A stretch of DNA of 64,000 nt from Massalongia carnosa (lineage: Eukaryota): NCBI GenBank assembly GCA_965645245.1, contig OZ287073.1:2480001-2544000 (forward strand). The letters run 5' to 3'. Every line of letters begins with the position of its first letter. The first letter of the stretch is position 1. The translations under genes and the position numbers were made by a program. The notes under the pieces were generated by a model. The model was not told the origin of the DNA. It searched no databases and was given only the letters and a program-made list of their open reading frames with translations. Of this stretch, positions 25,600 through 57,862 are shown piece after piece.

Positions 25600-27784
25600 T
25601 CCCTGAACGAGTTTACAAGGATAGCAGCGAGGATCTATAGAGCTAGATTAAGAACCTTTGGTATCGGTAAGGAGATGCTACTACTACTATCGTGGACTGG
25701 CGAAATCTGATCGAGGCTGACAGATATTGCGAATTCACTGGGAAGAACCCCGTCATGACTCTCAATGAGATCTCTATCAACATCCTCTACGTCTTCTTCG
25801 ACTGGCTACTCTCCATTCGAAAAGATCGGCTGAGTACGGCTAGTATCCTGCAAACACTAAAGAAAGAGACTGGCTGTCTAGAGATCGACCCGCTTATCAA
25901 AAGCCAGATGCACGGGGTATGAGAGCCCCATTCTACGCCTCTATTGATTAACCAGTACTAGGCGAGACAACGGCTCGCTCTGAAGCATGGGTTAAGGACT
26001 GAGAAGAAGAAGAAGAAGAAGAAGAAGCTCATCATGCGGGCCGAGGACGAGTTCGAGCTCCTGAAGACATTGTTTCTCTCCGTCGGGATCGTCTTTGATC
26101 ACGAGCGGCACCGTGTACAACTAGCCTTGATCATGCAGCTAGCCGGAATCACAGAAAACCGTCCTGCTGCCCTCTTGGGTGTGTGCTACAAAGATGTTAA
26201 GATCACCTTGCTTGCGGATCTCGGAGGAGGGGAGCTTCCTCGACGGTTGATTGAAATCGCATTCAAGAATACGAAGGGCTATCTAGGCGATAAAGAAACG
26301 TCCATGTTGCCCTTTTGTGCTTTCTTCGTCGAGACGGACAGTTTCGCTGAACGACTGACAAGTATCATAGAAATGAGTTCAGGATTCCTGACGAGCCTGA
26401 CGAACCATGCCTGTTGCTTTGTCCTCGTCTGAACCTACTCACTTTGATCTTTATCGATCAGGCCTTCGCCGCTCCCGAATTAATTTCTGCCGAACAGTTA
26501 TTCCGTCTCCGGATCCCCCGGGGATAGAAACAGCTGCCGTTTCCCCTTAAGGAAACGATGCTACACGTTCTCCTCTTCCGCCGATCCGAATTCACCGTGA
26601 ACGGAGTTCGAATTTCGGATGACAAAGCTCTGCCTGACAGTACTGACAGTACTCTTCGCTCACGGATGATAACCCTTGGAAGCGTCACCGGCATGAAGCT
26701 TCCCACCGGTTCATACATCTTTCGACGCGGCAATAGCGAAGCTCTCGACAACAGCAAGTGTGTAACACGACCTCTGTCAATCTTCTTTTGAGCTTTTCGC
26801 TGACCCTTGCACAGGCTTTATCAGTGAATCGCAACGGAATCTGATTTTGCAACATCACAACTCCACCGTGTTCTTTAAAAATCTATCTCTCGAGGTATAT
26901 CACAAGTGATGCCGGGGCCGCCTATCATGGTTTGAAGCCGCAAAATGCGTTGATACGGCTCGCCAGTGGAATGAGTCGTACGATTGATCGACGACGGCCT
27001 CGGAAGCTCAATGACGCCCAAAAAGCCCAGGTCGATCGTCAGCCAGAGGTGAGACTCCTTCGCCGGAGGCAAAAGAAAATGTTCCAGTTCATCAAAGACA
27101 ATCATGGACCCATCGCGAGCATGAAGGGGACATCAGTGTACGATAAGTACCAAAAGGCATATCAAGCTCATCGCAACATAAAACGGCGGCCGAGGAGGCT
27201 CTTTTACAAGAGTCAAAGCGAGGTATAAGAGGGAGCAGCCGGTGATCGACATTCAACGAAAGCTGAAAGGACTGCCGTCGGAAGAACTGGAGACGGCGAA
27301 GGCAGAGGATTACGTCTTCGAGGAGCGTGTCCGGGTCATCGATACCCTCCTCACCTTCGTGAAGTCATCCTCAGAGGAAGAGTGCAAACGGCGGGTGGAA
27401 GCGATCAATGCTTTGACAGCCCTTTGTCGCTTGCAGGAAAGCAAGCGTCCACGTCGTTCAAAACTTTCCGCGTCGGTCATCAAGGAACGGCATCTGACAC
27501 CACCATCTGTCCTCGATCCGGCCTCTCTTTCAGACTCCGTCCCGATTGAATGCGAACCCACTCAATGTATCTTTTGCCTCGGCTGTGTAGCGCTACCCAC
27601 CGAGACACGTCTGAAGTCTTTCCACAGCCACTACGATCTGAAAAAGCACTTCCATTGTAAACACCTTCGTCATCATCAGGACGGTCATCCGATCGCATGC
27701 TCTAATCCAAGGTGTCAAGATATTTTGACAAGCACAATGCACTTGCAGAACCATGCGGAGTTGGTTCACAAGACGCCCACTTGA
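25600..27784 (+). pseudogene. DUF3435 tyrosine recombinase (Starship captain-like), disrupted
   Basis: ERHRVQLALIMQLAGITENRPAALL, FKNTKGYLG, LCP...IDQAF, SYIFRRG, QRNLILQH...YLSRYI..D, SRTIDRRRPRKL and a C-terminal Zn finger (QCIFCLG...HF..KH...C...C...LQNHAELVH). Stop at ~26525 and frameshifts at ~26882 and ~27190. 5' end approximate. Confidence 0.85.
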
Positions 27785-28092
27785 CTGTCATTCGGCCTTT
27801 GCGTGCAGATTGGTTATATAAATTCCTTTTGAGGTCACCACCTTACGAGCGGCCATAATAGGTTGCCTCCCCATAGAAAAGCTTCGGTTCGGCATCGAGC
27901 TTGCCTAATTCCATACCCTTCTGCTGTTTTCGATGCGTCGAATGGTAAGTCTCATGACCATCTCGGGTTCTTATGGGTTCTTCGCTCCTTGTAGCCTATG
28001 ACTGCTGCGTCATCATCAGCATCAACTCTCGTATCGCTCTAGCTCCGAATTTCGGCTCCTCTACTCCCTCGCAACATCCCATCTTCAAAATC

Positions 28093-28290
28093 ATGGCTAC
28101 CGTACCATTTGCAACAGCGACCGAATGGAATAGCCTAGGAGTATACGTAGAATGTCCCTTCTGTGTAAAGACTCATCATCACGGACCAGATCATCGGCCA
28201 TGGACAGGTCAGACTTGGGTCGCTCACTTCGGGGGCAATCGTGAGTATGCTGACCTTACCTATCAATCACTGTATTCTTACAAAGGATAG
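28093..28290 (+). pseudogene. Short gene fragment with CxxC-HxH motif
   Basis: MATVPFATATEWNSLGVYVECPFCVKTHHHG: good start context and a Zn-binding-like motif, but truncated after 65 codons. Confidence 0.3.
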
Positions 28291-28786
28291 CTGCCTCCAT
28301 CTAATATTCATCTAACATGGCTGCCTAAATCATACATGTACCGCGTTATAGATGGAGAGCATCTCGGCGCAACACACATGAAGTCAGAGATAGTGGTTTT
28401 ATCCTTGGGGCCACTATCTAGACCGTTATGTACAATAGTAGCAATATTAAAAAACGATATTAAACTCCTGTGAAACATGATATCTTCAGCCAGAAAAAAT
28501 GCCCAAGGCTTTTTAGTCCCTATCCCTTTTCAATCACTACTCCCTTTTAAATCTCTACTCTCTTTCAATTCCTATTTGATCCGATTTGGCACAGCGAGAC
28601 AAGATGCCAAGAAATTGAAACTTCCCCCGTACAACTTGAGCCCTTGTACCCCTTACCTTCAAGTTCCCTCTCAGCTGAACGATAGAATTTCAATTCCACC
28701 ATTGCCTGCAAGATTCAACTAGCTTTCAGAGGGTATTGGTTTGATTTCATTTTGACGTTTGAATATGTCATCAGGCCTTGTCCTGC

Positions 28787-31700
28787 CTAGAATGTCATAC
28801 CTGGCACAGGTAAGCCGCTTGAGCCCCGCAGATACATCTCTTCGGCCTCGTTCATCCTGCCTTGATCTGCATACAGACTTCCTAGATTGTTGACTGTGTC
28901 GAGCGTTGATGTGTGATCAGGACCCCAGGCCTTTTCGTATCCTGTCAATGCCCGCAGATACATCTCTTCGGCCTCGTTCATCTTGCCTTGATCTGCATAC
29001 AGAGTTCCTAGATTGTTGACTGTGGCGAGCGTTGATGTGTGATCAGGACCCCTGGCCTTTTCGTATCCTGTCAATGCCCGCAGATACATCTCTTCGGCCT
29101 CGTTCATCTTGCCTTGATTATTATACAAATTTCCTAGATTGTTGACTGTGTTGAGCGTTGATGTGTGATCAGGACCCCAGGCCTTTTCCTTTCCTGTCAA
29201 TGCCCGCAGATACATCTCTTCGGCCTCGTTCATCTTGCCTTGACTTTTATACAGACTTCCTAGATTGTTGACTGTGTCGAGCGTTGATGTGTGATCAGGA
29301 CCCCAGGCCTTTTCATTTCCTGTCAATGCCCGCAGATACATCTCTTCGGCCTCGTTCATCTTGCCTTGATCTGCATACAAAAGCCCTAGATTGTTGACTG
29401 TGTTGAGCGTTGATGTGTGATCAGGACCCCAGGCCTTTTCGTATCCTGTCAATGCCCGCAGATACATCTCTTCGGCCTCGTTCATCTTGCCTTGATCTTT
29501 ATACAAAAGCCCTAGATTGTTGACTGTGTTGAGCGTTGAAGTGTGATCAGGACCCCAGGCCTTCTCGTATCCTATCAATGCCCGCAGATACATTTCTTCG
29601 GCCTCGTTCATCTTGCCTTGATCTGCATACAAAGCCCCTAGATTGTTGACTGTGTCGAGCGTTGATGTGTGATCAGGACCCCAGGCCATTTCCATTCCTG
29701 TCAATGCCCGCAGATACATCTCTTCGGCCTCGTTCATCTTGCCTTGGATTTTATACAAATTTCCTAGATTGTTGACTGTGTCGAGCGTTGATGTGTGATC
29801 AGGACCCCAGGCCTTTTCGTATCCTGTCAATGCCCGCAGATACATCTCTTCGGCCTCGTTCATCTTGCCTTGATCTGCATACAGAGTTCCTAGATTGTTG
29901 ACTGTGGCGAGCGTTGATGTGTGATCAGGACCCCTGGCCTTTTCGTATCCTGTCAATGCCCGCAGATACATCTCTTCGGCCTCGTTCATCTTGCCTTGAT
30001 TATTATACAAATTTCCTAGATTGTTGACTGTGTTGAGCGTTGATGTGTGATCAGGACCCCAGGCCTTTTCCTTTCCTGTCAATGCCCGCAGATACATCTC
30101 TTCGGCCTCGTTCATCTTTCCTTGACTTTTATACAGACTTCCTAGATTGTTGACTGTGTCGAGCGTTGATGTGTGATCAGGACCCCAGGCCTTTTCATTT
30201 CCTGTCAATGCCCGCAGATACATCTCTTCGGCCTCGTTCATCTTGCCTTGATCTGCATACAAAAGCCCTAGATTGTTGACTGTGTTGAGCGTTGATGTGT
30301 GATCAGGACCCCAGGCCTTCTCGTATCCTATCAATGCCCGCAGATACATTTCTTCGGCCTCGTTCATCTTGCCTTGATCTGCATACAAAGCCCCTAGATT
30401 GTTGACTGTGTCGAGCGTTGATGTGTGATCAGGACCCCAGGCCTTTTCCTTTCCTGTCAATGCCCGCAGATACATCTCTTCGGCCTCGTTCATCTTGCCT
30501 TGATTATTATACAAATTTCCTAGATTGTTGACTGTGTCGAGCGTTGATGTGTGATCAGGACCCCAGGCCTTTTCCTTTCCTGTCAATGCCCGCAGATACA
30601 TCTCTTCGGCCTCGTTCATCTTGCCTTGATCTGCATACAAAAGCCCTAGATTGTTGACTGTGGCGAGCGTTGATGTGTGATCAGGACCCCAGGCCTTTTC
30701 GTATCCTGTCAATGCCCGCAGATACATCTCTTCGGCCTCGTTCATCTTGCCTTGATCTGCATACAAAAGCCCTAGATTGTTGACTGTGTCGAGCGTTGAT
30801 GTGTGATCAGGACCCCAGGCCTTTTCCTTTCCTGTCAATGCCCGCAGATACATCTCTTCGGCCTCGTTCATCTTGCCTTGACTTTTATACAGACTTCCTA
30901 GATTGTTGACTGTGTTGAGCGTTGATGTGTGATCAGGACCCCAGGCCTTTTCGTATCCTGTCAATGCCCGCAGATACATCTCTTCGGCCTCGTTCATCTT
31001 GCCTTGATCTTTATACAAAAGCCCTAGATTGTTGACTGTGTCGAGCGTTGATGTGTGATCAGGACCCCAGGCCTTTTCGTATCCTGTCAATGCCCGCAGA
31101 TACATCTCTTCGGCCTCGTTCATCTTGCCTTGATTATTATACAAATTTCCTAGATTGTTGACTGTGTTGAGCGTTGATGTGTGATCAGGACCCCAGGCCT
31201 TTTCCTTTCCTGTCAATGCCCGCAGATACATCTCTTCGGCCTCGTTCATCTTGCCTTGACTTTTATACAGACTTCCTAGATTGTTGACTGTGTTGAGCGT
31301 TGATGTGTGATCAGGACCCCAGGCCTTTTCGTATCCTGTCAATGCCCGCAGATACATCTCTTCGGCCTCGTTCATCTTGCCTTGACTTTTATACAGACTT
31401 CCTAGATTGTTGACTGTGTCGAGCGTTGATGTGTGATCAGGACCCCAGGCCTTTTCGTATCCTGTCAATGCCCGCAGATACATCTCTTCGGCCTCGTTCA
31501 TCTTGCCTTGATCTTTATACAAAAGCCCTAGATTGTTGACTGTGTTGAGCGTTGATGTGTGATCAGGACCCCAGGCCTTTTCGTATCCTGTCAATGCCCG
31601 CAGATACATCTCTTCGGCCTCGTTCATCTTGCCTTGATCTTTATACAAAAGCCCTAGATTGTTGACTGTGTCGAGCGTTGATGTGTGATCAGGACCCCAG

Positions 31701-34376
31701 GCCTTTTCGTATCCTGTCAATGCCCGCAGATACATCTCTTCGGCCTCGTTCATCTTGCCTTGATCTGCATACAGACTTCCTAGATTGTTGACTGTGGCGA
31801 GCGTTGATGTGTGATCAGGACCCCAGGCCTTTTCGTATCCTGTCACTGCCCGCAGATACATCTCTTCGGCCTCGCTCAGCTTGCCTTGTTCTTTTGAAAA
31901 ATAGCCAATAGCATGATACGAAGGATATAGTACCTGTTCCCATCTCATGTTCCTTTCGAGGTTTTGAGGTTTTTTTCCAATCCAGAAGTGAACATAACTA
32001 CAATGACCAGCCAGTCGTTTTCGATGCAGCCAGTTTGCTGAACTGTCAGTGGAATGACATGCGGAACCGATTACAGAAACTGCTAAAGAAGCTATCTCGT
32101 CGTTAGAGGTTAGATTCATGTGAAAACACCAGTCATGTATAATTGGATGAATCGCATAAGATAAGATCTCATATCGTGTTTCTATCAAGGAGTAATCCAG
32201 CAGTATTTGAATCTTCTGTGTAAAATCAAATTCCGTCTTCATGCTACATAAAAACCAGATAGGTAATGTCTCTTTTGGGATAATGCTCTCGTCTTCATCA
32301 AGTATAGGTGCGAATAAAGAATACCATAAATCTGAATGATCGAGATATGCAAACAGATTAAGCAATTTTGCAGCGCTCGCGTCATTGCGTTGCACATATT
32401 CATAGGAAATGGTGTACGTAGATAAAATGCTACGAGGATAATCTTTTAATCGGGTCGTTTTGTTGTTGTGAAGCTTCTCCCAAGTCTCTTCATAGTATCG
32501 AATATAGTCGTTCACACTTGTAGTTGTTCCGTGGATATAGGAGCCTGCATGAGCAAGTGCAAGTGGGAGACCACCCACTTTCTCGACGATTCTATCAAGG
32601 CCTATATAATGCTTAGTAAATTGGATTAAGACTGTTGCTCGAATGTCATTACCTTCAACTGATCGTCCTATCCTGCATCGTAATACTTCTACTCCTTGTA
32701 GATCGCTCATCCTTCCAAGTTGCCGGTCCTGCCCGTGTTGTCGAAGCTGTCGTAATCGGCTTGTGATTAAAATAGAGCCATGATCGGCTTCCGGGAAAAA
32801 ATCTTCCACATCATATGATTGAGGATCATTTACCTCAAGGGAACTATCACGATCGACATTATCGAAAATGAGAAGCCATTGATTGTTTTCATGTTGACTG
32901 AACCAAATAAGAATATTGCTAATGATTTCATCTAGCTCTTCAGGGGATGTTTTAGAGAATTTTCTACATGAATCCGGAATCTGATCTGGGGGTAATTGCC
33001 GAGCAATCTGTGCAAGACTTTGACTTACACTTTCCTTACTATCGCCGTTTAGCCAAAAAATAGAACTGAAAATCTTCTGCGATCTTTGAGCGAACTCGAT
33101 TGCTAGCTGAGTCTTGCCGGAGCCGCCTAGTCCGTGTAAAACGAACACCTTCCGGCGAGTCTCACGAGTTGGCTTGGGAAAAAGGGTATTCTTAAGGTCA
33201 TTCATTTCCTGATCACGAGCTATGAATTTGGGTACACGGGGTAAGCCTTTCAAACTGAACGGCACTTTATATGAACCACTGTCTATTCAAGGATTTAGTA
33301 ACTCAAGAATTATCAAGCAAACATTGACGCACATTCTCGTGTTGAAAGATTATTTCCACAAAGCTTCATTTGTTTCATCACGCTTTCCAAAGCCACATAG
33401 CGGGTTGTGGCGGCCACGATCTTGTTCTTCTGTGCTGCATCTTCGAGTCCAATACTCTCAAGCCCATGAGAAACATTGAAACGAAAGTAGCGATTCCCAT
33501 CGTCGAGATCGGAATGCGCTCGATGAAAAGACTCCGCTGTTTTTTCTGTCTCTGTTGCAATGTCTTTCAACGTTTTTGCAATCTCGAAGAGGCTTGAGCC
33601 ATAAGAATCCAAGGATGGAACACCGGTACCGATAGATATCAGGCATTTGATGTTTCCCTCAAGCGCTTCATCTGACCACACACTTTTGGCCTCGTTCCAA
33701 AGATGTGCGACAGGATTGTTAGCCCCCACAGCCCCATCGACAAACTCTTCTTCAAACTGGCCAATTTTTACTGGATCAAAGAAGGATGATGCGGCAGATG
33801 TGGCTCGAGCTGCCTCCCAAATTCGTGTCTTATGGTACATATCTGATGATCCTCGAGAAGGATACGATGTGAAAAGGACTGTGTCGGCAGTCTCTTTGCT
33901 CAGAGCGCATACAAATCTAGCTTTCATTAGTATCACTAGAATTATACGTGTAAATGCAACTTCCGAAGCACTAACACCTTGCATTGCTGATTCTCTGATC
34001 CTTTGAGGAGAGCATTTTCCCCTGCCTTCTCCTTCCGCTTTACGATTTCTCGAATCGACCGTTCCAGCTCTTCCGTGTCGAATCTCCCCTGCACGTGTCC
34101 GTTTATTGTGACACGATGCCGCTTTTTTTTAAACACTTGATCGAACAATGCGACATAGGCATCAATACATTCATCGATATTCATCTCAAGACGACCTAGC
34201 ATGATAGCAATCAATCCACCGGTACTTGTCCCTCCGATCATGTTGAAATACTCGCATGGCTTCGGCGGCGCATCCGGATTGATGATCTCCATCAGTCGCT
34301 TGAGGATTGCGAGTGACGATAGCCCTCGCACTCCACCGCCATCAAGAGATAATAGGCATAAATCTTTATCTGGCAT
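28787..34376 (-). CDS. Patatin-like phospholipase - NB-ARC - TPR NLR (PLP-1-like architecture), apparently intact
   Basis: Exons 34376-33976, 33916-33333, 33282-32653, 32601-28787 (the third intron is 51 nt, in frame). Patatin motifs DGGGVRG, GTSTG and DGA are intact. NB-ARC GLGGSGKT, LLIFDNVD, ILITSR, GGLPLAL. 24 full TPR repeats plus a partial one. Confidence 0.95.
28830..31875 (-). repeat. Array of 24+ x 126-bp highly conserved TPR repeats
   Basis: Unit EAEEMYLRALTGxEKAWGPDHTSTLxTVNNLGxLYxxQGKMN, with near-identical DNA between units. Confidence 0.97.
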
Positions 34377-35160: not shown

Positions 35161-35278
35161 AGGGACTTTATTTCCCCAGGGCTTTTATTCTCCCAGGGCT
35201 TTCATTATCTCGGGAAACGAAAAGAGTAGGGAAACGAAAGCCCTGGGAGAATAAAAGCTCTGGGGAAATAAAGTCCCT
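35161..35278. repeat. Near-perfect 43-bp inverted repeat (hairpin/MITE-like)
   Basis: AGGGACTTTATTTCCCCAGGGCTTTTATTCTCCCAGGGCTTTC (35161-35203) and its reverse complement with one mismatch (35236-35278), 32-bp spacer. Confidence 0.85.
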
Positions 35279-35334
35279 AGCCAAGAAACACGCCCAAGGC
35301 TTTGAAATGACTGGGGCTTTTTAGTCCATATTCC

Positions 35335-35555
35335 TTTTCAATCACTACTCCCTTTCAGTCCCTACACTCGTCTAATTCCTACCCACTTCCAGTCCCTACT
35401 CCCTTTCAGTCGCTACTCTCTTCCAGTTCCTATGATTTTTGAATTCCTACTCCCTTCCAGTCTCTACTCTCTTTCAGTCTTCACTCTCTTTCAACGTCCA
35501 TAATATTTCAGTCCCTACTCTCTTTCACTCCCTACCCTTTTTAAAGCCCTACTAA
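35335..35555 (+). repeat. Degenerate ~18-19-bp minisatellite (TTCAGTCCCTACTCCCT)
   Basis: About ten imperfect copies. A similar short block occurs at 28500-28573. Confidence 0.75.
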
Positions 35556-39400: not shown

Positions 39401-39709
39401 GTGATACATAATAACAACCTAGAAATTCCATCAAGAAGCGCATGTTTCTATTCAATGTTTTCCCACGACATAGCTTCTTGTCGGCTTTTTGCTTCAGCGT
39501 TCTGTCGAAGGATCCAGCTAACCAGTGCTTGCTTGAGTAGTTCCTGATTATGCCGCTTCTTAGCACGATCTGATTGTGCTTGTCGCCTCGCTCGCTCGAC
39601 TTTGGATGTCATCATTTCATTTGAGCTACGGACCTAAGCACAGCTTAATATGTTTAACTCGGATAAAATTTCAACCGAAAATCGATTTGAGAAAACCATT
39701 GATAATGCT

Positions 39710-39945
39710 TGCAGTCGGCCTCCTTTCACCGTCCTTGATTCGTGTATGCCAATCCAGGTTGACTATACTGATTTGAGTGTCTAGATGCTCCTCTCCCAGT
39801 ATCCCCGAGCCTGTCTTCATCACTTGTACCTCTAGCTCCTCAGCCTCCTTTCACCGTCCTTGATTTCAGTAGGTCAATGCCAGTTTGGCCATGTTGCTCA
39901 GCGTGGAAGGATGCTCCGGCCTCAATATCCTCTTTCTTGTCTCTG
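39710..39945 (-). pseudogene. Remnant of two TPR repeats from a third NLR-type gene
   Basis: Minus strand reads ETRKRILRPEHPSTLSNMAKLALTY*NQGR*KEAEELEVQVMKT...LGEEHLDT. A motif is repeated ~125 bp apart (39718/39843). Confidence 0.75.
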
Positions 39946-40903
39946 CCGCTTTAGCAACAGTCTCTGCAGTGGAAGAAATCCTCATTAGAATCTTTCTAGG
40001 AGAGTTAAGATGATCAGGTAGTAGTAGAGTGAGTATTTGAGAAAGAGAGGAGGATCAACGGTGTTATGGTGTTAAAAAGTGTCACAAGATGTCGAGGAAT
40101 TATCTAAGTCGTCGCGACGAGAGGCCCAAAACCGCTACTCTTTCTCAAGGCTCGCTATTGGATTCTTAGGTGTCTCTCGAGCTCATTCTCCCAGGAGGCC
40201 TAGTACAGACTTATGTATCTAGGGATAAATCTGATTGTCGATGAGGTTGAGATTTCTGTTTTACGACAGCTTTAGATATATTGGGGATAAATGCACTGGC
40301 CCAAGAATGCGGATAAAATGGCAGAGGAGCATGGTAGTAGACATTGATTTCTACGAGAAAAGGCGAATTTATTACAAAAAGATAGAAAAAACCAACTAAC
40401 GCTCCATCTATTGTAGATGACTTTCCTATCGCACCTCATTATAGACATCTTCTTGCTTATTTGCGTGCCTATTTGCAGCATCCTTATTCTGCAGTGAATC
40501 TACTCGATTTTGTTTGGCGTACCTTCAGAAAACCGAGAGGGAATGGCAGCGTCGTCATAGTATTTGTAATGAGATATTTTAAAAAAGGTACAAAATTTCG
40601 CATAAAAGGTTGCTCTCTAGTAACATATTGAAATATCTGAGAAATTGTTCACTGGACAATTTTGATCCTCCTGTCAAAGAAAATGAACTCGCTTTCATCA
40701 AACACTGTCGATTCGTCAGTTACGCTTTCCCCAAATGGCATTATAACCACTGGTTAGCTCTGGAGATGGGATATAGAGATCGACACGACTGCACTCACCT
40801 TTCGAGTTCCATTCACGCCAGATCAGAAATCTTCGCCTCATGGCTTGCGCTTTTGTCAGAGATCACGGCTACGGCAACTCGCTTTGAAACTGAAATCACA
40901 GGG

Positions 40904-45472: not shown

Positions 45473-45531
45473 ATCATCGATACCACGAGATAGCCTAGTC
45501 ATGTAAATCCGCGCCGCGCGGCTTTACAGAG

Positions 45532-47707
45532 TCAGAGGTAGCGGACGGGGCACTTTCTTTCTTGTCTAGATCGTGTCGGAGGAAGGGCCATGGGTACATT
45601 CAGCGACAACGCTTCCATAGGATCTCGAGGCGCTTTTTTGGTCTTTGATGCCTTCATCGATGATTTAAGAGCATCAACATTGTCAACAACGAGCGCCGCA
45701 TCGGAGATATTGTGATTAGGCGCAGGATTCTCGCCCGATGGCTCCGTGCTCTCGCTTTCCTTCGAGACTTTCTTCTTGACCGCATTTCGCTTTTTAAAAA
45801 CCTTTCTCGACATATATCCTTGTTTGATCATCCAGTTTTTCCTCCGTTCCTCAAATTCAATACTGGCGGAGTTGCATGTTAGGCTGGGTAATCGTTTTCT
45901 CTTTATGTCGTTGTGTCGTTTCCATTCCTCGAACATGTCTCCCTCGTCTAATCTCATTGCTTGACCCCGCTTTAAAATTTCTAAAAGCTCGGGGCCGTAG
46001 GGCCTAATACCAGTCCATGTGTTACCAATCCATCGCCGCATGGTGGGCTCGTCCACAATCTGATCCGCCCAAGTAGTCAAAGAATTCAGTACCTCATCGG
46101 GCATTATCAATGATGGGAAGTATCGCATATGTGAATTTGGGAACTTTTCCTGCGCCTTGGCCTCCCTCCATTCTCGAAGTTTAAGGGTGAACCAAGGCCG
46201 CCTAGACGAGTCACGCTCGGCCGTTCTATTTAACATCTCATTGGCGGCTGTTGATGTCTGAAAACTTGGATCGCAAATTGAACAGCAAGGTTGCGGCTTA
46301 ACATAGGCCGACGTTGGATACACTTTATCATTGAAGAAATTCAAGCCAATACCTCGAACGCAACCATCTGAAGGCACATTGATTATCTCCCAAAGACCCG
46401 GTGGCATATCTCGTCGCCGATCAGCATCCTTTTGATTGATGCGGCGTTTACTGGCCTTGGATTCAATCTCGATTCCCGCGTCATATCCGTCCTGTTCGTC
46501 CATTTTTGATCCGCTTCTTGGACCCATGCACCAAGAAGGATGCAAAAGAGTAAAATGCGCCTGTCCTCGACCGCAACGCAAAGCACGACCTAAACGTTGG
46601 TATAGCTTCGCCATTGACGAGGGTAGCAGCCATTGCGTAACTCTCATAACGTCTGGATTATCAATACCAAGCCCGTATGCATCCGTTGCGATCAGGATTC
46701 GAGGAAATTTACATTGCTTCGAGGGCATTTCGAAGCGAGCCGCAATCCTTTCTTTGTCTTGGGTGGCCATGTCGGAAAAGAAAGGCGCGACCCAACTAGC
46801 AGCCTCAATTGGATAGGACAATTGATTCATCCATACTTTCATTAGCGCACACGCCTTTTTGATAGATGAAATTGAATCCATGAAGATAATCGTTTTCGGA
46901 ATATCAAAAGGACTCTCAGCCCGTGTTGGTAAAAGATGTTGAAGATCGATCATGCTGTTCATAGGCCGCTGTAGACTGCTTGTCTGTATGTATATCTCTG
47001 GACGATCAAGCGCTGTTTGAATAACAGTACTTTCGTTATCAAAGCCACAGCGATCTTTAACGCTCTCTAGGGTTCTTGGATCCAGCGTTGCAGACGCACC
47101 CAGAAAAGGAATACCATCTGGTAATCGTGTACGAAGCACACCGAGATTGAAGTATTCGGGCCGGAAATCTCGCCATTCGGATACAAGATGCATCTCATCA
47201 AGAGCTAAAAGACATAAATTCAAGAAGAAACTTGGATGCCTCAGAACCTCCTGATTAAACAGCTTTGACGTCGCTATCTCTGGGCTAGTAAAAACTATTC
47301 ATATTAACGAGTAAGTTTTTATATTTATCTCAATCATAATTTGAATACACACCATGCGTATAATTGTTTTCACGAATTAACTTTAAATTAGAAGAATTAT
47401 TACTATCACCGTCCAACACGAAAGGCATGCAGCCCTCGATAACGCTCAATTTCTTGCACTGTTGAGCTTCTAAGGTCTTGAGAGGCATGATAATTAAAGC
47501 GATCTTAAGACAAGAGAACATTAATGGCATAGCTTGAAAGATAATACTCTTTCCAAATCCAGTCTTGGCGATAAATATCAGATCCTTTTGATCTTGTGCT
47601 AAAGTCATGATAGCGTCAACTTGCTCATTCTTTGGATAAAAGCCGAATTTACTTAAAATCACGGTCGTCACCTGCTCGCGAGTTATCGACGCTATAGGAT
47701 CGTCCAT
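45532..47707 (-). CDS. RecQ-like superfamily 2 helicase, 705 aa
   Basis: Exons 47707-47353 and 47294-45532. Motifs AKTGFGKS, FTSPE, LDEMH, GASAT, ATDAYGLGIDNPD, QRLGRALR, then a Cys cluster (CVR...CCSIC) and a helical HRDC-like region. Confidence 0.92.
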
Positions 47708-48643
47708 TTCGATGTGTTCGCGAGCGATATTCGACGATTCGCGAGTTGGATTCTTAGCCCGCAAAACGCACATCAAGCAAGTTCATCACATTCAACGATT
47801 TTAGGCTTTCGAAAACAACGCTCGGAGGATCAGATTAATGATCAGAAGCGCCGACAATGAAAAACTGGAGCTAGTGACCCGTTGAGTCTGCTGTGGTGGT
47901 GTCGAAATTTCGAGTCAAAGTCGAGTCCTCGTCGCGAGATCGATATTGCGACTCAATTTTGCATCGATATGTAATTAAAATATTGATTAATCGATAGAAT
48001 GTATATCAAAGCATTATTTCTATTATTACATAATTTATGAAATGTCGTTGCGCGTTGTTGATTCCGCCGTCAACTTGATTCTTGATGATTTTTGAGGTTA
48101 AGCCAAAAATTTGTATGAGCGCGCACCAAAATAAGCCGGATCTGACAAAAATACAGAGTTTTGCGCTCAGACGTGCCGCCCGTAGCATGCGTAGTCAGCT
48201 AAAGGGCCGCTAACCCGAAGGGAATTAGCGACGCTAACCCGAAGGGGCTTAGCGAAAATAGGCTAACCCGGAGGGGCTTAGCCGGCTCATAGAGCCACGC
48301 ACGTCTGAGGTACTGAGGCAATGATTCTCTAGTATCCAATTACGAGACCGTGCCATCTCAGAACTGAGATTTTGGAACCGGTTTCAAGTTTTTACGATCG
48401 ATACAATTCGTAAAAGGTTGTAAATTTAAAACCACGTATGCAATACAAAATTATCTATTTAATTTCAGGATTGAAATCGAAAAATTGAAAACTTTTCTTA
48501 AATTTTCTAAAACTTACGACTTGCGAAATTAGCGGAAAATGTCACACTTGATGACCCGGACGATAAATTTTTGATAACACAATAAACTTGCTGTCTATTT
48601 TGCAATTGAATACATTTTCTAAGTGACATGATACCCTATATCA

Positions 48644-51476
48644 TCATAAACTTACAGCAGGATTCGGAGGAACATGAGTTATCATGTCATGTTGCGATCG
48701 CAGAATTACTTCCGGATATACAATGTTATCCGTTTTCCAGTCATTTCGTTCCGGAAACAACATACACAATCGAGACACATCCATAACTCGAGATAATGCC
48801 ACATATAACTGACCATGAGTAAAAGGAGGAGCTCGCAAATCGACTCCTATCGTGTCCAATGATTGACCTTGCGACTTGTTGACAGTCATAGCAAAGCAGA
48901 ATCGTATCGGAAATTGTTTGCGACTTATGATCCAGGGCAACTCGCCTTCCGTGGTATTAAGAAGAATCCGGGGAATTAATCGCGTTTCACCGTTGAATTC
49001 TTATCCCAAAATCTTTCCCTCTAGACAGGTCCGCGAAATGTGAGTAAGACGTAATCGGGTGCCGTTACAGAGACCAAGTTTGGGATACAAATTCCGCAAA
49101 AAAATGATTCGGGCTCCAAGTTTCAGTTGCAATTGTGAAGGTTGTATAGACGATTTTTGCAAGGGTTGTAAAAACTCGGGAGGAAGAAAGTCTCCTCGTT
49201 CCTGCGCCGTATCGTTCTCTATTTGAGCAACGGAGTTCAAGGTGTGCGAACCGCCCTGCAATTTATTCAGTACTGCACCGTTTAACTCTGCGACGATATT
49301 GTTCCGCAAAGTCAAAATTGCTCGACTTGCGAAAGAATCCGCATCCAGATGAACTTGCCGCATGCGATCGGAAGGAAAAACGGTGTCCACGAAACTGTCT
49401 AAGTTGTTCAGTTGATTGACTTGTTCCGGTAGCTGAACACGACCGGAAAAAGCAGGATCATAAGACATTTTCCCGATCCAGTCCGCAAACGTCTCATTGG
49501 CGACTTCGTTACGAATTCGCATGATTTGACGCAAAAACAGTTTTTGAAATCGCGGCCACAGAAGGTGTTTTGAATGTTCGCCGCAACGATGGCTTCCCGA
49601 TTTCCACGGGGAACAACGGGCAAGATTTGAGCGAAATCTCCGCCTAACACCATCGGAATAACTCCGAAAGGTCGTCATTACCTAAAAGGACCGTAAAAGT
49701 GCGATGTACGGCCATGAAGCATTGTTTGTGTTGCATCGGCACCTCATCCCCAATGATTAAGGCTGTGCGTTGCAAAAGACAGTGTAAATGCGTGTTGCGG
49801 GTGATATTACACATGCTGTCCTCATTTAAAATCAAAGGAATTTTCAACCGGGAATGTGAAGTCTGTCCGCTAGGAAGAAGTAAAGCCGCAATGCCGGGAG
49901 ACGCAACGCAAAGAATGATTTTATTCTCCGCCCGAATATCATTGCAAAGAGTCTAATATAAAAAAGTCTTACCTGTTCCTGCAGGTCCGTGAACAAAAAA
50001 ATGCGCCATTCTAGGATAATCTCTAACTCCCGCAACAATGGTATCAAAACAGTATTTCTGATCCGCATTCAATTGAGTATATCGTTCATTTCGTAACGTC
50101 GTTTCTTCGTTGAAATCGTAAGTCATTTCTGTAACGGTTCGACCATGCGTGGTGCGGACGGCAGGACCTACAGCGAACAAAGCAGGAGTCCCAGTTATAG
50201 TAGAATAGAGCTTGGTCTGCGGACTAAGTATTGTGCCTTTTGGTCGGGAGGACAGATGGCGCAATGGTAGAAATCTATTTACTTCTCGCTTCGTCACAAT
50301 TTCATTTGCGATCAACGGATTTCCAGTACTCCGACCCCAATCGTATGTAAACAGCGGCATATTCTAATCCTCTAATCGTTTTCCTAAATCCGAAAGACCT
50401 CCGTTTAACAAATAAAGGCCGTAATCTAAATGCGGACTCATTAAATCGTCAGGAACATCAGTCATTGATCGTAATCGATGCGGTAAATCGTCATATATAT
50501 CATTTGCGTATCGATTCCATAAGGCCGTAGGATCCGTAACACGACGATCATCGGTTGTGGCCGCATTCTCCCGCAAAGCCTCGCTGGCGGATTTGTAAAG
50601 GCTGATAAAGGGATTCATATTGTGCAACATCTCTGTTAAACGTCGTACAATATCGGGATCCAATTCTGTATGTTGTCGAGTACGAATCGCGGTTGCTTCG
50701 TCGGGATCGTAAAAAACAGTTGAGCAAAGCGAGGAGAATCGTCAACGGGATCCAAAGGACCCTGCAGGTGATACAGTTCTCCGTGATTTTGAAAACATAC
50801 CGGTCCACGACCGTTGCGAGGAAGTCGGCGATCGGGTTTGTAGTTTACGGAGGTGAACGTCAACGTGGAATTATATTTTCGGAGGTTTTTGCGAAATGTG
50901 CGGGTTCTAATATCGTCACCAATTAACAGTTGCCGTAAATAATCAGGAGGAGGCTGAAACGGTGGCAACACGACACCACCTCGCTTGCAACAGGATTTGT
51001 ATACTCGATCTCGTCTTCTGTCACTCTGAACAGCTTCCGTTTCCCAATGCCACGCACCGCAAGTTTCTGCAATGATCTGTCATGTGTTGAATTCGTTGTA
51101 TCGCGGATTCTAAAGTGTACTGACTTTTAAATGCGGCAGGAAAGTTACGATTTGCAGCCGCATGGTCACGGGCTTCAACAGTACGGTCGCGACGACGTGT
51201 TCGACGATTTCTTCGTGACTCACGATGATTAACAGGTGGAGAAACAGGTCTGGAACTCGCAATGGATGGAGAAATATGTCCGAAACTCGACCTTACGAAA
51301 CCGCGAGCTCGGTTGTGATTGTACTGACCCGCTTCTGCTTCGTTGAGCAGCATTTCTTCCCAAATGTTCGGATTTTCCAACTGCAAATCATTTCGATTTG
51401 GCGGGCTTGGCGAGTGGAAAGCCGACGATACGGGAGAAACGGAATTCGTTATTGAACTGTTAGGCGAACTCTGCAA
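48644..51476 (-). mobile_element. Degraded Helitron (RepHel) with PIF1 helicase and an internal deletion
   Basis: N-terminal CCKRG..LP...FRKNLRKYNS..FTS...HGELYH...PRFAQL. PIF1 motifs HGPAGTGKT, DEVPM, GGDFAQILPVV, LCNGTR, FAMTVNKSQGQSL, FTHGQLYVALSRV. Frameshifts. HUH Rep core not seen. Termini not identified. Confidence 0.9.
50130..50298. mobile_element. 169-bp solo LTR inside the Helitron ORF
   Basis: TGTAACG...CGTCACA termini; TSD ATTTC at 50125-50129 and 50299-50303. Confidence 0.85.
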
Positions 51477-52508
51477 AGATAGAAGAGTGACAGGAGATAC
51501 AATCGAACTTCTTGGAGGAGCAGGCGGACGCAGGAAAAGACTAACAGAACGTTTTCGGTGGTCGTAAGATTAGACGAACGCGTTTTGCGGGAGGATTTTC
51601 CGGAGAATTCTCTTTATTATGCGGTCTACGGAGAGAACACCATTGTCGTAACGGAATGGGAAGTCGAGAAACGATTTCTCGAGGAGAAGAGCTAGACTGC
51701 AAAGATATAGCGGTAGTCGTTGCTGTTGTTGCGAAGAGATCAGATAATTGTTAATGCTAAACCCAATTAAGACTACGTTAAACCGAATCGAGGGTTTTCG
51801 CAGGTTCATTGAACGGACGGATTTAGCGCAGTTTTCGGGAACATCAAAACATGAAAAACGCGAACAACGACCACCTCTCGCGGCCCACAACGAACGTAAA
51901 AGAACGTAGTTTTCGCGATACGGACTGATATCAACAGGATCAGTTGATCTCCGAAGTTTGACGAAGTGAAACGGTCCGGTACGGTCGAGGCAAGAGGGGA
52001 ATTTTTGGTCCTGTCCGCAGAGAGGTCCTCCCCGCATTATTTGATAATTCAGTACTGTTCCGCAAGCCGCGTTCCCTTTTCGGGTTCAATCCAACCGAAT
52101 AAGGTAGTGTTGCCCAAAGTAGCAGGGTAACTCTTTCAGTACTATATAGATCATCACGCAATTTGGAACAAGCCACTGGTTATCCAGCCACGCGTAATAT
52201 TAAGTTCTATCTCTAGTACGAAATAAATCTTGAGACCAAACCAAGCACAGTATGGCCCCATTCCTACTTTCCAATTGTTAGACTAGTATACAAACCATCA
52301 TGTAACGCGTCAATTGCACTGTCAATTCTGCCTCGATAGCTGAATCTGAATTGACCATTATGTTGTTGATTGTTGACGTATTGAAGTTGAGGTGTAAAAT
52401 GTTGAAAATGCACTGAGGGGTGCTCTCTGCATTCCGAAAGTGGTCTAGCACGATTACGGAGTACTCCAACATAAAAACCATCTTCTATCCCTCTCGAATT
52501 CAATCGAC

Positions 52509-54667
52509 ATGGCCGCTGACCAACGAAAACCTGACGCCCAGAAATCAGGGCGGCAAACTTTGAATCGTGAGATGTTCCATTATAGTTCGTCCATTTCGCT
52601 CTTACTCACCTCTGAACAGAAAAGTGCCCTCAAGATATCACAAAGCATCAACCTCAAAAGAAGCGAGCGAACTTCCAAGACCAAACCATTCAGCAGCATT
52701 CATTTTCCTCTCTGTCAACAAGCAATACTCACAGCTCGGTACGTCCTCTATTCGTTGTAATGTTACCGTGGAAAATTAATCGTAAAAAAAAGTGTTCACA
52801 GGACTTACCGACTTGCGAGAAGCCTTCAGGCCTAGACCAAAGACTCGATCAAAAGCGAAAGCGATCACAAGGAGTTGAAGATCTAGTCCCTCAAACTAAG
52901 GGTCAGCCCTTTGATCTAGAGAGAAAGACTTTCACAAGGGAGAACGAAGAACATCATCAGCTACCATCACCATTAACAAGCAACCCACACCAGCAATCAT
53001 CTGAGAAGAAAAGGAGGAGAGCTGTTTCCCCAGAATCGCGCTCGGAGGAAGTCAATAATCGCTCTCCGAAAAGGCGCAAGGCCTTACGGCAAACACCACA
53101 ACAATCAGGTACGAGTACATACAGTCCCATTTTTGAGAGGCCTGAAGAAGGGCACGAAGCCTCAGAAAGCGAAGAGGAAGAGAAAGACGACCCTATCAGC
53201 TATTGGACCGCGAACCATACCTGGCCCGACAACTTTGCAGAGTCTCATGCAATGTCTTCGAACAACCCCAACAAACGACCGCGAACGTCGGATCATTCTC
53301 AAAGCAGCAAGGATGAAAAATCCCGGAGCTATTCTCAGAGCCGTAAGGATGGAAATGTCCCGGAGCAATATACTAAATCGTACGAATCGTACATTTTCAC
53401 ACAAGGTCTGGACATGAATTATATCAAAAGCAGAGAACTTTTTTCTCCAGACAGCAAGGCGGCTTGCCAAGATCTTCGAAATATGGAATGCGTGGCCATC
53501 TCTCCTACTGTTTATTCCGAGGACAAAACACTCCAGGTGATCGAACTTTGCCAGAATGCAAATGAAGCAATGGTAAGCCGAGATGTTACGACGCTGATTT
53601 TGCCGCCAATCAAAGCACTACATCTAACGGACGAAGCAAATATTTTCAAAGATTTTACCGATCAAGTTAGAGCGCAGTGGCATGGGAGTTGGGTTCTGGC
53701 AGGACCTCGGCCTGAACCTGACCTGGCCATTGGCTTCCTCCATTCCGCCTTTACGGTATCAGAAAATGAAAAATTAACCAACTACACATCCTTTGAAAAC
53801 TTGACGCGACCAACCAATGAAATGTGTTTCCCGTTCCTGATGTGCGAGGTCAAGTGTGGCAACATGGGACTTGACTATGCTGACCGGCAGAACATGCACA
53901 GCTGCAGTGTGGCGGTAAAGGCGCTTCTGAAGCTCGAGCAAAAGGCGGATCAGTACCGAGAGGACAAGCAATTCGAGAGCTTGCTTGGCAAGATCGTTGT
54001 CTATTCTATCTCACACGATCAAAAAGATGCCCGCCTCTACGGGCATTATGCCTTGGTTGAAGAAGAAAAATGGACGTATTATCGCCATCATATTCGGAAA
54101 TTCGACATTGCACACGAGGAGAGGGACCTGCTGGCCCTCCACAATTTTGCTCGCAATATCCTAATGATACACGCTTCAAAACTGTTGAAACGGCTTCAGA
54201 AAGCAATCGCAGCTCTCCCAGTCTCCTCTACGCTATCATTCTCTGCAGGTACGATGAACTTGGAGGACGACTCGCGAGGCTTCCAACAACCCTCGCAGGG
54301 TCGAGATGCCGAAGGTTTCGCGATTCCCGTTTTTCCTGCCAGCGCCCAAAAACTGTTCGAAGAGCAAAAGGAGCAGATGGACAAGCTCCTTCAGCAGATG
54401 GAACGGCAAAGGGAGGAGAACAAGGAGAAGGAGGAAAGGCAAAGGGAGGAGAACAAGGAGAATGAGGAAAGGCAAAGGGAGGAGAACAAGGAGAAGGAGG
54501 AAAGGCAAAGGGAGGAGAACAAGGAGAAGGAGGAAAGGCAAAGGGAGGAGATGGAGCAGCAGAGGAAAGAGAACAAGGAGCAGATGGATGAGCTAAAGAA
54601 GGAAAAGGATGAGCTAAGGGAGCAAATCAAGGGACTCATGAACATACTCAAACAGACGAAGATCTAG
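52509..54667 (+). CDS. DUF7924-like protein (PD-(D/E)xK-like motif) with C-terminal coiled coil
   Basis: Predicted exons 52509-52566, 52620-52738, 52802-54667 join in frame. Motifs PRPEPDLAIGF, FPFLMCEVKC, ADRQNMHS, YSISHD..ARLYGHY. C-terminal 33-bp repeats (ERQREENKEKE x4). Confidence 0.75.
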
Positions 54668-55077: not shown

Positions 55078-55545
55078 CTCAAACGTCCCCAAATCACCTA
55101 TGTGCCAATGCCTCGTGCGCCGTGAGCCTCTTCGCTGGATCAACGTTCATCAAACCACCAATAAGATCTCTGAAGTCCGTGTCTACGCCTTTCCACAAAG
55201 AGAACAGCTTATGCGGGTTAGCCGTGTTAAAGCTGTCTTGAATAACTTTAAGAACTTCGCATCAAGGACTGTCGCCAAGATGCTTCAAGAGACCATTCAG
55301 TCCGTCCTCGTCCGCAAAATAAGAGATCTGGCGCTCGAGGACGACTGCTAATGGCTCCTCGCCGTCAGCCAGCTCCTCTTCGTCGACGGCGAAAATGACT
55401 CTCTTAAACACTGCGTAAATGCACTGCATGACGACACTAGTGAACAGCCACTCTAAAATACGAGGGATGGTAGATGACTTACAACAACACCGAAAGAGAA
55501 TATATCGGAGTACTTAACGCGACCTTGAGCATGTGCTTCCGGGCT
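55078..55545 (-). pseudogene. Ser/Thr protein kinase, C-terminal half
   Basis: SPEAHAQGRV..SDIFSFGVV, intron, then LERQISYFAD...DFRDLIGGLMNVDPAKRLTAHEALAHR*F. Confidence 0.8.
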
Positions 55546-55922
55546 GATCTAGTCAAGACTCATAGCGTATATAACGACGATAGTATGAACAACTTTGGTG
55601 TACAGTGAAAGGCTTCATCGTGCCTGATGCTACCTATGCTGTTGCCTGGGCTACTTTGCATCTCATGCCCTAGTCTATGCTATCGGAGGGCTGGAGATAG
55701 GGCGATTGAGAGATTGCTCTGACTACCATACGTACACTTCGTTCAATTTAGACCTTTTATCGCTTTGATGTCTCTATCACGCTAGTTCTCGCCTCTAGCA
55801 AAACAGAACGTACTTAGGTGTGGCTCAGTTTTCAACGTTCGGTTTGCTAACGCCTTCTTCCGCTATAAGCCCTTTCATCCGACTTCGTCGTCCTAACAGT
55901 ACAATGAGATCAGTAACAGACC

Positions 55923-56571
55923 ATGCCTAACAGAAGAACGCGTCTACGACCACGGAGCCGGTTGGCCAGTCCGGCCATCGTTATATCATCCAGCGAGTCC
56001 TCCAAGAGAAAAGAAATCCGCCGCGCCGCGTCTGTCTTGCTATGTTCGTGCTCCTAAAACTCGACGACTGACGCTATCTAACTTGCTAGCCTCTGTCGAC
56101 CTAGCGCTAAAAACCAGAAATTTATCTTGAAAGACGTCTCCCAGTCTGATTTCAACATTTTCAGGATATGTACTACTGCCTGCGCAACTGGCACTTATCT
56201 CCGCTTATCTTAAGACACGATCCCGGAGCGGTCGATATTTGTTTACAAATACTTCATAGATGATCTTCTAGGCCTCGCCCGAGAGGACTTATCGATCGCG
56301 CTTATAAAACAAATCCTCAAAGACACATTATGCGGACTTGCGGCGCTGCACGACCAGAACATTGTTCATTCTGATAAACTAGGCTCCTTCTGTTTATGGG
56401 GCTGATACTCTGCAGATAGCCAAGCGAATAATATCTTGGTCGAGCGGAAGAAGGATCATCACGGAATGGTTATTGAACAGGTTCAGCTCGCCGATATTGA
56501 AGACGCTGCATATATACCTCCTGGAAGCGATGTCACCGGTAAACAGATGGGCAACTGAGTGTGGCGGAGCC
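55923..56571 (+). pseudogene. Ser/Thr protein kinase, N-terminal half
   Basis: GQSGHRYIIQRVLQ, KFILKDV, ILKDTLCGLAALHDQNIVHS, NNILVE, VQLADIEDA, GN*VWRS. Stops and frameshifts. Confidence 0.8.
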
Positions 56572-56689
56572 TTGCATACAGCCACCGAGCTTTCTATTGC
56601 TCAGTATTCAGCCCATCCTGTTTGTTGGATTTCTGGACTTACTCGAGCGCATGGGGAATGGAAGGCAAATACGCGATGTAGGACACCAG

Positions 56690-56900
56690 CGGTGAGGGGG
56701 GGGAGGATCGGTGATGGCGGTAGACATTTCCACCGACGAGCTGACCTTCGCCCACCGCATCGTGCAGGCGGCGGGCTTCGTGGGCCAGATCGAGCTGCTG
56801 CAAGGCAATTTCATGAACTTGACCGGCATCCCGCAGCACCACCATATTGGGGGTCCCCTAAGCAGTTCGACGCCATTGTGAGCTTCTGGGCCTTCTCCAT
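56690..56900 (+). pseudogene. Class I SAM-dependent methyltransferase fragment
   Basis: VDISTDELTFAHRIVQAAGFVGQIELLQGNFMNL followed, in a shifted frame, by QFDAIVS. Confidence 0.5.
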
Positions 56901-57862
56901 CACTTCATTCCCCCCTGGACGGTTAGGTTGCGCTGCTCCGCCAATGACGGTGCTACCTGCCCCCCAGGGCGCGTGGTTCTCGAAGGATCTTTGACTTGAC
57001 AAGTGGAGATGCCGAGCGATGTAGAACATATGTTCTGCAATCGGCATACATCGCTCGAGATAGGGAAAAGTTTTTCATTCCGCTCCTTCGATCATTGCAA
57101 TCGTTTCTTCTCTATACTGTGAGATATACAGCATGCGCAAGAACTTCTCGACATTAGACAAGGTTCCGCGAGCAATTAAGTCATTGTCAATGAATGTTCT
57201 AAAATTAGACCCTCGAAAGAAGCCGGGTTATTCTTAATCACATGATAGTCAAAAGTCAAGCCTAAATCTTTCTCTGTTCATTTCATTGTTTCAGCGATTT
57301 GCCATGTTGAGCATGAGCAAGCAGATTGATGCAGCTTTCATCCTTAATGTACTTCTTAACCAGATTCTTGACTAAATCTATCAAGTAATTTCTTTTTCTT
57401 AACTTCGGGAACACTAATGATTCCGAACAGATCTTATTTAAATCAGATGCCTGTGATGACTGAAGTAAATCATTTGAAGAAGCTGAAGTTTCTGACCCCC
57501 ATAATAAGAATTTTTGGGAAAAAGAGACCCTATACCGCAGCTAAGCGGGTATTGAGTGTATATATATCATAAGAAACATAAAGGGGTGGTCAATGTATGA
57601 TATATAATATAAGATGGGAAACAAGAAAATAAAGAAAGAAATAGAATAACATCCACGAAGCAGTAGAAGCCCGCCAACGACGAAGTAACAGATGACAGTA
57701 AATGGAGAGCGAATGGATAGCAAATTAAGTGGACAGCAGATTAAGTAGTAGTTGGACAACAAATAAAGTAAGAATTTAATTAATCAAATACATGAATTGA
57801 CAAATGCACTACTTCACCTGCTGTTCATATGCTGCTTCGTTTACTACTTCACCTGTGCCTAC

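Follow-up and report, generated by a model that had tools for sequence, protein, structure and literature searches.

We analysed a 64,000-nt stretch of DNA from Massalongia carnosa (assembly GCA_965645245.1, contig OZ287073.1, positions 2,480,001-2,544,000; hereafter the window, with positions counted from its first nucleotide), in which a pseudogene of a DUF3435 tyrosine recombinase ('captain') lies beside an intact gene for a patatin-NB-ARC-TPR NOD-like receptor (NLR). A sequence-only reading had taken the region between 25.6 and 57.8 kb for an immobilised giant transposon of the Starship type that kept its NLR cargo while the captain decayed. Our results lean modestly towards a similar view, namely that a wrecked element of the Starship type lies in the window, derived from a captain family of lichen-forming (Lecanoromycete) fungi, with the NLR gene most likely its former cargo. 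Two parts of the earlier proposal stood, the dead captain of a cargo-moving family and the intact NLR; the cargo status of the latter is by analogy with relatives. The label 'derelict Starship' is plausible for the captain, and for the neighbouring NLR it would again apply by analogy.

Captain pseudogene and the adjoining NLR gene

The captain was recognised from five open reading frame (ORF) pieces (Pfam DUF3435, E 3e-12 to 5e-25), which lie in frames 0, 2, 2, 1 and 2 and match positions 2-418 of the profile in order. In a tblastn search, residues 33-679 of a homologue from a lichen (P0027, 679 aa) align to 25,599-27,781. The captain stop codon coincides with the C-terminus of this homologue and is preceded by a C2H2-like finger. 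The window captain and its relatives of 577-691 aa span the whole DUF3435 profile. The disrupted DUF3435 recombinase of the earlier reading is therefore upheld, and the comparison of sequences supports the captain as a dead member of the DUF3435 family described below.

Within the pseudogene, four gaps of 45-68 nt resemble retained introns. Beyond these, TAG codons occur at 25,638 and 25,644, where relatives have Q and W, and a further stop at 26,525-26,527 takes the place of Q. There is also a +1 frameshift near 26,874, a loss of about 2 nt at 27,190-27,211 and a deletion of eight codons near 25,860. The paralogue P0058 reads through the break at 27,189/27,212. Relatives begin with MAPR... 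about 96 nt ahead of the point where homology of the window captain starts. A 5'-region nhmmer profile (700 nt, built from 13 relatives) matches 25,419-25,594 with its positions 305-459 and 25,601-25,750 with its positions 557-709, leaving positions 460-556 as a gap. Since only 6 nt separate the two matches, the ATG and about 32 codons have been deleted, that is, approximately 97 nt have been replaced by the 6 nt at 25,595-25,600. In total, the captain lacks its start codon and is interrupted by three premature stops and by frameshifts at two or more sites, which amounts to at least six disabling lesions in 2.2 kb. The element should begin with a further ~300 nt left of 25,419, among them the conserved family terminus, but this canonical start is gone. 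The captain coding body alone would thus survive of the original element, minus terminus, first ~300 nt, start codon and some 32 codons. With nonsense codons, frameshifts and a lost terminus, such a copy would be unable to make a recombinase or to be moved by one. As a cause of the decay we considered repeat-induced point mutation (RIP). The composite RIP index was negative in all 15 regions, which rules out RIP-driven decay, and RIP-like 1-kb windows numbered 3 of 126.

The NLR gene starts 1 kb downstream of the captain and is convergent with it. It consists of three exons (34,376-33,969; 33,915-33,334; 33,277-28,790) separated by two introns of 53-56 nt, both of which are of the GT..AG type with branch sites present. 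Its product aligns from residue 1 of patatin-NB-ARC-TPR homologues, and the gene is intact, as previously suggested from sequence. The patatin exons are 76-84% identical to a Vezdaea aestivalis protein. We identified the motifs DGGGVRG, GTSTG, DGA and Walker A (GLGGSGKT); patatin, NB-ARC and TPR thus occur in one protein together with the lipase GXSXG, the aspartate motif and the P-loop, as in receptors of the PLP-1 type. Among the 25 TPR copies, 23 match the reference copy at 92-100% identity, against 64-68% for the two edge copies. The gene is flanked by direct copies at 28,501-28,575 and 35,293-35,381 (85% over 68 nt), which start with GCCCAAGGCTTT and continue as a CT-rich minisatellite, and the stretch 35,161-35,278 forms a 118-nt palindrome.

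An open gene of 5.6 kb next to a 2.2-kb captain with at least six lesions argues that the NLR has been kept by selection or is younger. We infer that the NLR gene, and possibly anything further right, arrived with the captain, and the patatin-NB-ARC-TPR gene is most likely former cargo retained by the host. Judging from its architecture, it would act in the manner of fungal PLP-1-type receptors: its TPR array would sense a ligand, NB-ARC would oligomerise and the patatin phospholipase would kill the cell.

Captain family, element ends and competing explanations

Relatives of the captain were compiled as 78 loci (L001-L078; identity up to 76%) from a scan of metagenome contigs that used its C-terminal 193 aa as query. 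In L001, L002 and L003, which come from three assemblies, the sequences agree at 98-99% from one common nucleotide onward, with unrelated upstream flanks. Downstream, the likeness extends over at least 10 kb for L001/L002 and at least 4.3 kb for L003. Likewise, L022 and L028/L029 have in common a block of 12,140 bp, the flanks of which differ on both sides. In both sets, cargo beyond the captain ORF has been mobilised. Across sub-lineages, the common part is a captain module of 2.75-3.1 kb only.

The common start corresponds to a conserved 5' terminus of ~90 nt (for example, L001:7833-7930 and L022:7826-7930) with the pattern TTATAAA..TTA[AG]CGGGGGGACGGC..TGCC..TTTC..GGCAGGTTCGGACGCTGCTTTTGAC... 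The terminus profile matches 33 of the 78 loci (E 2e-7 to 2e-30) and detects the terminus even with captains just 35-37% identical to the window captain. The distance from terminus to captain ATG is 433-481 nt. Outside the terminus, the adjacent 100 nt have a median AT content of 82%, and at least 60% AT was found in 20 of 21 upstream flanks. A search for secondary structure in the terminus gave no useful covariation (covariation term -0.14 kcal/mol). The terminus is a possible recognition site, presumably the site of recombination, and a possible sequence tag for element ends.

At least 5 kb of sequence downstream of the captain is available for 49 of the 78 loci, and 94 ORFs from 13 loci were scanned with Pfam. 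Downstream of the captain we found NB-ARC/TPR or NACHT/ankyrin NLRs, HET, NACHT_N, OTT_1508 deaminase, kinases, SIR2, dynamin and DUF7924; on the upstream side, retroelements and piggyBac- or Tc5-like transposases predominate. NLR-type domains occur downstream in six of the 13 scanned loci, and ankyrin repeats occur upstream in one. In the complete set, relatives of the window NB-ARC are present in eight loci, invariably on the downstream side of the captain. DUF7924 was detected in four of the 78 loci, including the block common to L022 and L028. The terminus, the AT-rich flanks and the downstream cargo match the anatomy of cargo-moving tyrosine-recombinase elements as defined in PMC11162782, and on these comparisons we regard the captain relatives as a genuine cargo-moving family of lichen fungi. 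Intact relatives start with a conserved ~90-nt terminus embedded in AT-rich DNA, followed by the captain ATG at the offset given above and by variable downstream cargo, often of immune type (NLRs, kinases, deaminase, HET, DUF7924). A further, more tentative possibility, which we would not yet back, is that these loci form a lichen Starship family of unusually rigid anatomy, with a conserved terminus, a fixed ATG offset, AT-rich targets, possible members of ~12 kb and DUF7924 as a recurrent passenger or helper.

The observations that weigh against a Starship with NLR cargo come from the search for element ends, from the neighbourhood of the captain and from its additional copies. In a Starship, the captain is expected as the first gene at the 5' end, immediately within a defined terminus, and direct repeats, sometimes inverted ones, mark the boundaries, with an empty site in another genome. 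The family 5' terminus (100-nt profile) gave no match better than E 1.6 on either strand of the window, and neither a 3' motif nor direct or inverted terminal repeats were found in it above chance. Nucleotide homology with relatives is confined to 25,598-27,794 (63-74% identity) and ends ~10 nt beyond the captain stop codon; outside this range, only repeat arrays and two short matches to the 78 loci remain. These results do not bear out an element extending from 25.6 to 57.8 kb, and they agree with the sequence-only reading in that it, too, had found no boundaries. The 3' end of the L022 block is present in L022, L028 and L029 only and not in the window, and this boundary is itself uncertain because the loci end 600 nt later. 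There is also no contig joint skipping the captain in other sequencing runs, the contigs of which (3.2 kb or less) are too short to span an element.

These other runs (X1, X2, X3 and X6) comprise three coded organism labels and a lichen metagenome and share 24-59% of the sampled words from 19.0-28.9 kb. Their contigs were aligned to 11.2-28.65 kb, which is covered throughout by X1-X3 and partly by X6. Contig depth in these runs does not equal copy number and was not used for copy counts.

One candidate left edge, at 23,430-23,440, was considered and rejected. Loose contig ends occur at 23,434/23,440 in X2 (7), X3 (3) and X6 (1), and X6 contigs stop at 23,397 and resume at 23,440, with loose X6 sequence that still resembles the upstream sequence of the window. 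The position coincides with the right end of a GC-rich Crypton-like block. The local alignment of the window sequence TAAGGCTTATA with TAAGGATTATA at the L022 terminus was no better than shuffled controls. An inverted match of 55,860-55,873 to 23,431-23,444 (12/14) is at chance level, as ~1.4 exact 10-mers are expected. When 23,426-23,525 was locally aligned with 28-64 kb on both strands, scores were 23-26 compared to a null maximum of 34.

The fact that homology with relatives stops at the captain stop codon favours another explanation, according to which a lone captain fragment of ~2.4 kb came to lie by chance in an accessory compartment rich in NLRs and transposable elements (TEs), and the NLR, DUF7924 and the scraps further right are residents or independent arrivals that were never its cargo. 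The neighbourhood offers further arguments of this kind. A second NLR, of the NACHT-ankyrin type (5.7-11.1 kb), sits upstream of the captain, outside any element read from it, which means that NLRs are dense here and that the adjacency of captain and NLR could be due to chance. No patatin gene was found near the captain in any of the 78 related loci, and DUF3723 and ferric reductase (FRE) genes, which also count as Starship auxiliary genes, were not found among the 266 window ORFs scanned with Pfam. The DUF7924 gene has many near-identical copies on at least eight large contigs, and the DUF6589 element, a Mutator-like element (MULE) and a 205-bp miniature inverted-repeat transposable element (MITE) are separate insertions with their own target duplications. 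Against chance adjacency, all eight NB-ARC NLR matches in relatives lie downstream of the captain, and several of these NLRs are convergent with it and 2-3 kb from its stop codon, as in the window; DUF7924, too, lies within the 12.1-kb block common to L022 and L028. Overall, we consider the chance placement of a lone fragment rather unlikely, and the wreck of a Starship-type element remains the reading to which we incline.

The additional copies raise a different question. At 25,596, 26,874 and 27,211, an alternative form accounts for all depth in X1, X3 and X6 where covered and for part of the X2 depth. Because contigs of other runs carry this form, the three indels are young or private. The start-codon deletion is shared, since X3 record 20 and X6 record 25 cross 25,595-25,600 without ~97 extra nucleotides; together with non-canonical upstream sequence, it is seen in these two contigs and in X1 record 5. 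A deletion common to contigs of other runs makes it possible that copies spread by duplication after the captain died. The captain remnant could then be part of a larger repeated block that was copied post-mortem through segmental duplication or the activity of another mobile element, so that the copies would be duplicates of one wreck. Such spread is consistent with an apparently multi-copy captain remnant, which is at odds with the low copy number expected of Starships. On at least three other megabase-scale contigs we found C-terminal captain ORFs that share 89-95% identity with the window copy (at least four such ORFs), all as fragments of 180-235 aa, and none of the 58 proteins found is a full-length protein more than 73% identical to the captain catalytic piece. 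In addition, 8,471 X2 contigs align at 90-100% identity over 17.5 kb, although their number is a matter of contig depth, and the other runs may hold orthologous copies from close relatives instead of paralogues. We regard a repeated block as improbable, more so than a lone fragment. It seems that the assembly containing the window also harbours several captain copies truncated in a similar way, as well as many copies of DUF7924; if so, the captain lineage would survive there only as wrecks.

Right-hand stretch and remainder of the window

To describe the window content, we scanned with Pfam 132 stop-to-stop ORFs of at least 90 aa from the whole 64 kb, 134 ORFs of 48-89 aa from the gaps and six short read-through translations. 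The window is fungal DNA rich in TEs and NLRs. The 132 and 134 ORFs gave zero matches to housekeeping families, in line with the earlier impression that core genes are missing. All named relatives of window genes come from lichen-forming fungi, including Lepraria, Teloschistes, Vezdaea, Diploschistes and Circinaria. The features are listed in Table 1.

Table 1. Features identified in the window, from left to right
Feature	Coordinates	Strand	Evidence and remarks
Copia debris	left part of window, left of NACHT-ankyrin NLR		Pfam
NACHT-ankyrin NLR (second NLR)	5,753-11,098		Domains NACHT_N/DUF7708/NPHP3_N/NACHT, then ankyrin repeats, spread over several frames
4.1-kb insertion	11,369-15,490		Inverted ends (TAACGTAACCCACCA...)
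Tc1/pogo scraps	between 4.1-kb insertion and Crypton-like block		
NDC10_II/GCR1_C block, Crypton-like	19,383-23,433		GC-rich (56%); directly adjoins sequence upstream of captain
Residual upstream homology to captain family (like a 5' untranslated region)	25,419-25,594	+	nhmmer E 1.7e-6, high composition bias
DUF3435 tyrosine-recombinase (captain) pseudogene, C2H2-like finger at C-terminus	25,599-27,784	+	Pfam, tblastn, alignments, nhmmer
TPR array inside NLR	28,699-32,022	-	Repeat search; 25 register-shifted copies, 126-nt (42-aa) spacing
Intact patatin-NB-ARC-TPR NLR gene, ~1,826 aa, three exons	28,790-34,376	-	Pfam, exon model against homologues
TPR remnant, no open gene	39,715-40,030	-	tblastn, blastn
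Weak C2H2-like ORFs, possible pseudogene	41,436-42,108	-	Pfam E 0.001-0.007, below cut-offs
Young DNA transposon, 6,027 bp	42,295-48,321		Ends inverted over 95 nt (99% complementary); perfect 8-bp target duplication TGATTCTC
Helitron-type debris	48,647-52,085	-	PIF1, Pif1_2B, UvrD_C_2 (Pfam)
Intact DUF7924 gene, 635 aa, C-terminal 33-nt repeat coil	52,760-54,664	+	Pfam E 8e-62
Protein-kinase scraps	55,094-55,237; 56,280-56,375	-; +	Pkinase E 1e-4 to 3e-2, below cut-off
S-adenosylmethionine methyltransferase scrap, very weak	56,654-56,824	+	Methyltransf_25 E 0.04, 15 bits vs cut-off 27
MULE, looks intact	58,185-61,588		94-nt inverted ends, 99%; 9-bp duplication GTGTTCCTA; FAR1/AFT and MULE domains
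Copia, second occurrence	right of MULE		Pfam

To the right of ~34.4 kb, the window consists of later insertions and debris in a mosaic that may or may not be linked to the captain. The TPR remnant, which the sequence-only reading had also listed, is 70-77% identical at the nucleotide level to the TPR array of the L015 NLR, itself located downstream of a related captain. For the proposed C2H2 pseudogene, C2H2-like ORFs are indeed present, but their matches stay below the Pfam cut-offs. In-silico removal of the adjacent DUF6589 element produced no minus-strand ORF across the junction and did not restore a C2H2 ORF. Similarly, the kinase and methyltransferase remnants could be located as scraps, yet all of them score below the cut-offs.

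Nested TEs were predicted correctly. The 6,027-bp transposon is nearly intact and codes for a DUF6589 protein (ORF 42,776-45,469, plus strand, one in-frame stop at 43,949) and, on the minus strand, for a DEAD/Helicase_C protein (45,535-47,782). A protein-atlas look-up for DUF6589 returned no informative neighbour. The 8-bp target duplication of the transposon recalls hAT or Zisupton-type elements. PIF1 helicase pieces of the Helitron-type debris lie in several frames at 48,647-50,363, and the ORFs on to 52,085 have no family match. The DUF6589 element and the MULE, which lies just beyond the right end proposed for the Starship-like element, are later independent insertions.

The DUF7924-like gene noted earlier proved to be an intact DUF7924 gene, and its product is 100% identical to a called protein of 635 aa (P0332). 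Paralogues 92-96% identical, and many at 80-90%, are spread across at least eight megabase-scale contigs. Many paralogues on megabase-scale contigs share 80-98% identity, and across distant lichen genera the family is 75-89% identical. DUF7924 thus forms an independent multi-copy family and need not be cargo. A conserved D...ExK is encoded by codons at 53,720, 53,846 and 53,852; in an alignment of 32 sequences, E122 is invariant, and conservation is 90% or more at D80 and K124. The structural model of the domain (pLDDT 80.9) was compared with known structures. Foldseek retrieved nothing from PDB at E 0.001 or better. VIA-align found BpuSI (Z 9.6, root mean square deviation 4.0, 153 aligned residues), DrdV (Z 9.4, root mean square deviation 3.1, 137 aligned residues) and, in addition, HsdR, NucC, SgrAI and EcoRI, such nucleases making up most of the top 18 rows. 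Judging from the model, DUF7924 is predicted to have the PD-(D/E)XK nuclease fold.

In the left part of the window, the ankyrin array of the second NLR comprises 19 register-shifted copies with 99-nt spacing, 17 of which are 92-100% alike. The 4.1-kb insertion is missing from some X1, X2 and X3 contigs (joint 11,368 -> 15,491) and represents a TE insertion polymorphism. Two further segments, 23,880-24,084 (205 bp) and 24,186-24,410 (225 bp), are skipped in contigs of other runs; the former has a 9-bp duplication (ATAGATTCT) and resembles a Mutator-type MITE.

Relation to known systems and implications

Comparable derelict Starships have already been published (PMC13486527; PMC11162782). Starships carry patatin-like phospholipase (PLP) and NLR auxiliary genes, and their non-functional copies have been termed derelict or degraded (PMC11162782); in the window, the PLP and NLR features form one fused intact gene. 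One Starship from a lichen fungus, Tangerine of Xanthoria parietina, combines PLP, NLR and methyltransferase genes, and a putative degraded copy of it has been described from X. calcicola (PMC13486527). The window resembles Tangerine in its lichen-forming Lecanoromycete host, in a DUF3435 captain with PLP and NLR neighbours, in many nested TEs, in a methyltransferase associated with the cargo and in a decayed copy where a cargo gene outlives the element (PMC13486527). There are also clear differences. Tangerine has clean boundaries, an empty site, DUF3723 and RIP-affected repeats (PMC13486527), whereas the window has no boundaries, DUF3723 or RIP signal; patatin and NLR are fused in one window gene, and the methyltransferase is just a 15-bit scrap. 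Captains of the Tangerine family are described as occurring in Lecanoromycetes only and as having a core-binding domain that is short or absent (PMC13486527).

Among other derelict Starships, Horizon with ToxA likewise combines a dead captain with a useful cargo gene that has been retained (PMC13486527, PMC11162782). Such derelicts were recognised against intact copies at known boundaries (PMC13486527, PMC11162782), in contrast to the window, where the cargo is proposed by analogy with relatives that are 74-76% identical. Phoenix- and Prometheus-family Starships are found mostly in AT-rich DNA (PMC11162782). Relatives of the window captain, too, reside in AT-rich DNA, whereas a family-wide conserved 5' terminus of ~90 nt is not known to us from PMC11162782.

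The closest known counterpart of the window NLR is the Neurospora crassa protein PLP-1, which has patatin, NB-ARC and TPR domains and acts as a sensor of SEC-9 (PMC10197012). The two are alike in domain order, in phospholipase serine and aspartate motifs, in Walker A and in very high internal repeat conservation, and highly conserved repeats are of the type described for fungal NLRs (PMC10197012). The window NLR differs in being just 30-40% identical to non-lichen homologues and in having its 25 TPR units mostly near-identical.

Starships in lichen-forming fungi were first reported in 2026, from one genus, to which the window contributes a decayed case from a different lichen fungus. DUF7924, for its part, is a widespread and copy-number-variable fungal family of unknown function, which in its predicted structure looks like a PD-(D/E)XK nuclease. 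One route by which fungi may enlarge their immune repertoires is illustrated by a cell-death-type NLR that outlives the transposon that probably brought it. Of greater use than the wreck is the conserved 5' terminus of its relatives, which could tag element ends where whole-genome comparison is impossible. If the anatomy of the family is indeed as rigid as we tentatively suggest, Starship 5' ends would be callable from sequence alone in fragmented lichen metagenomes, the terminus would point to the recognition site of the captain, and the Massalongia genome would hold decapitated copies.

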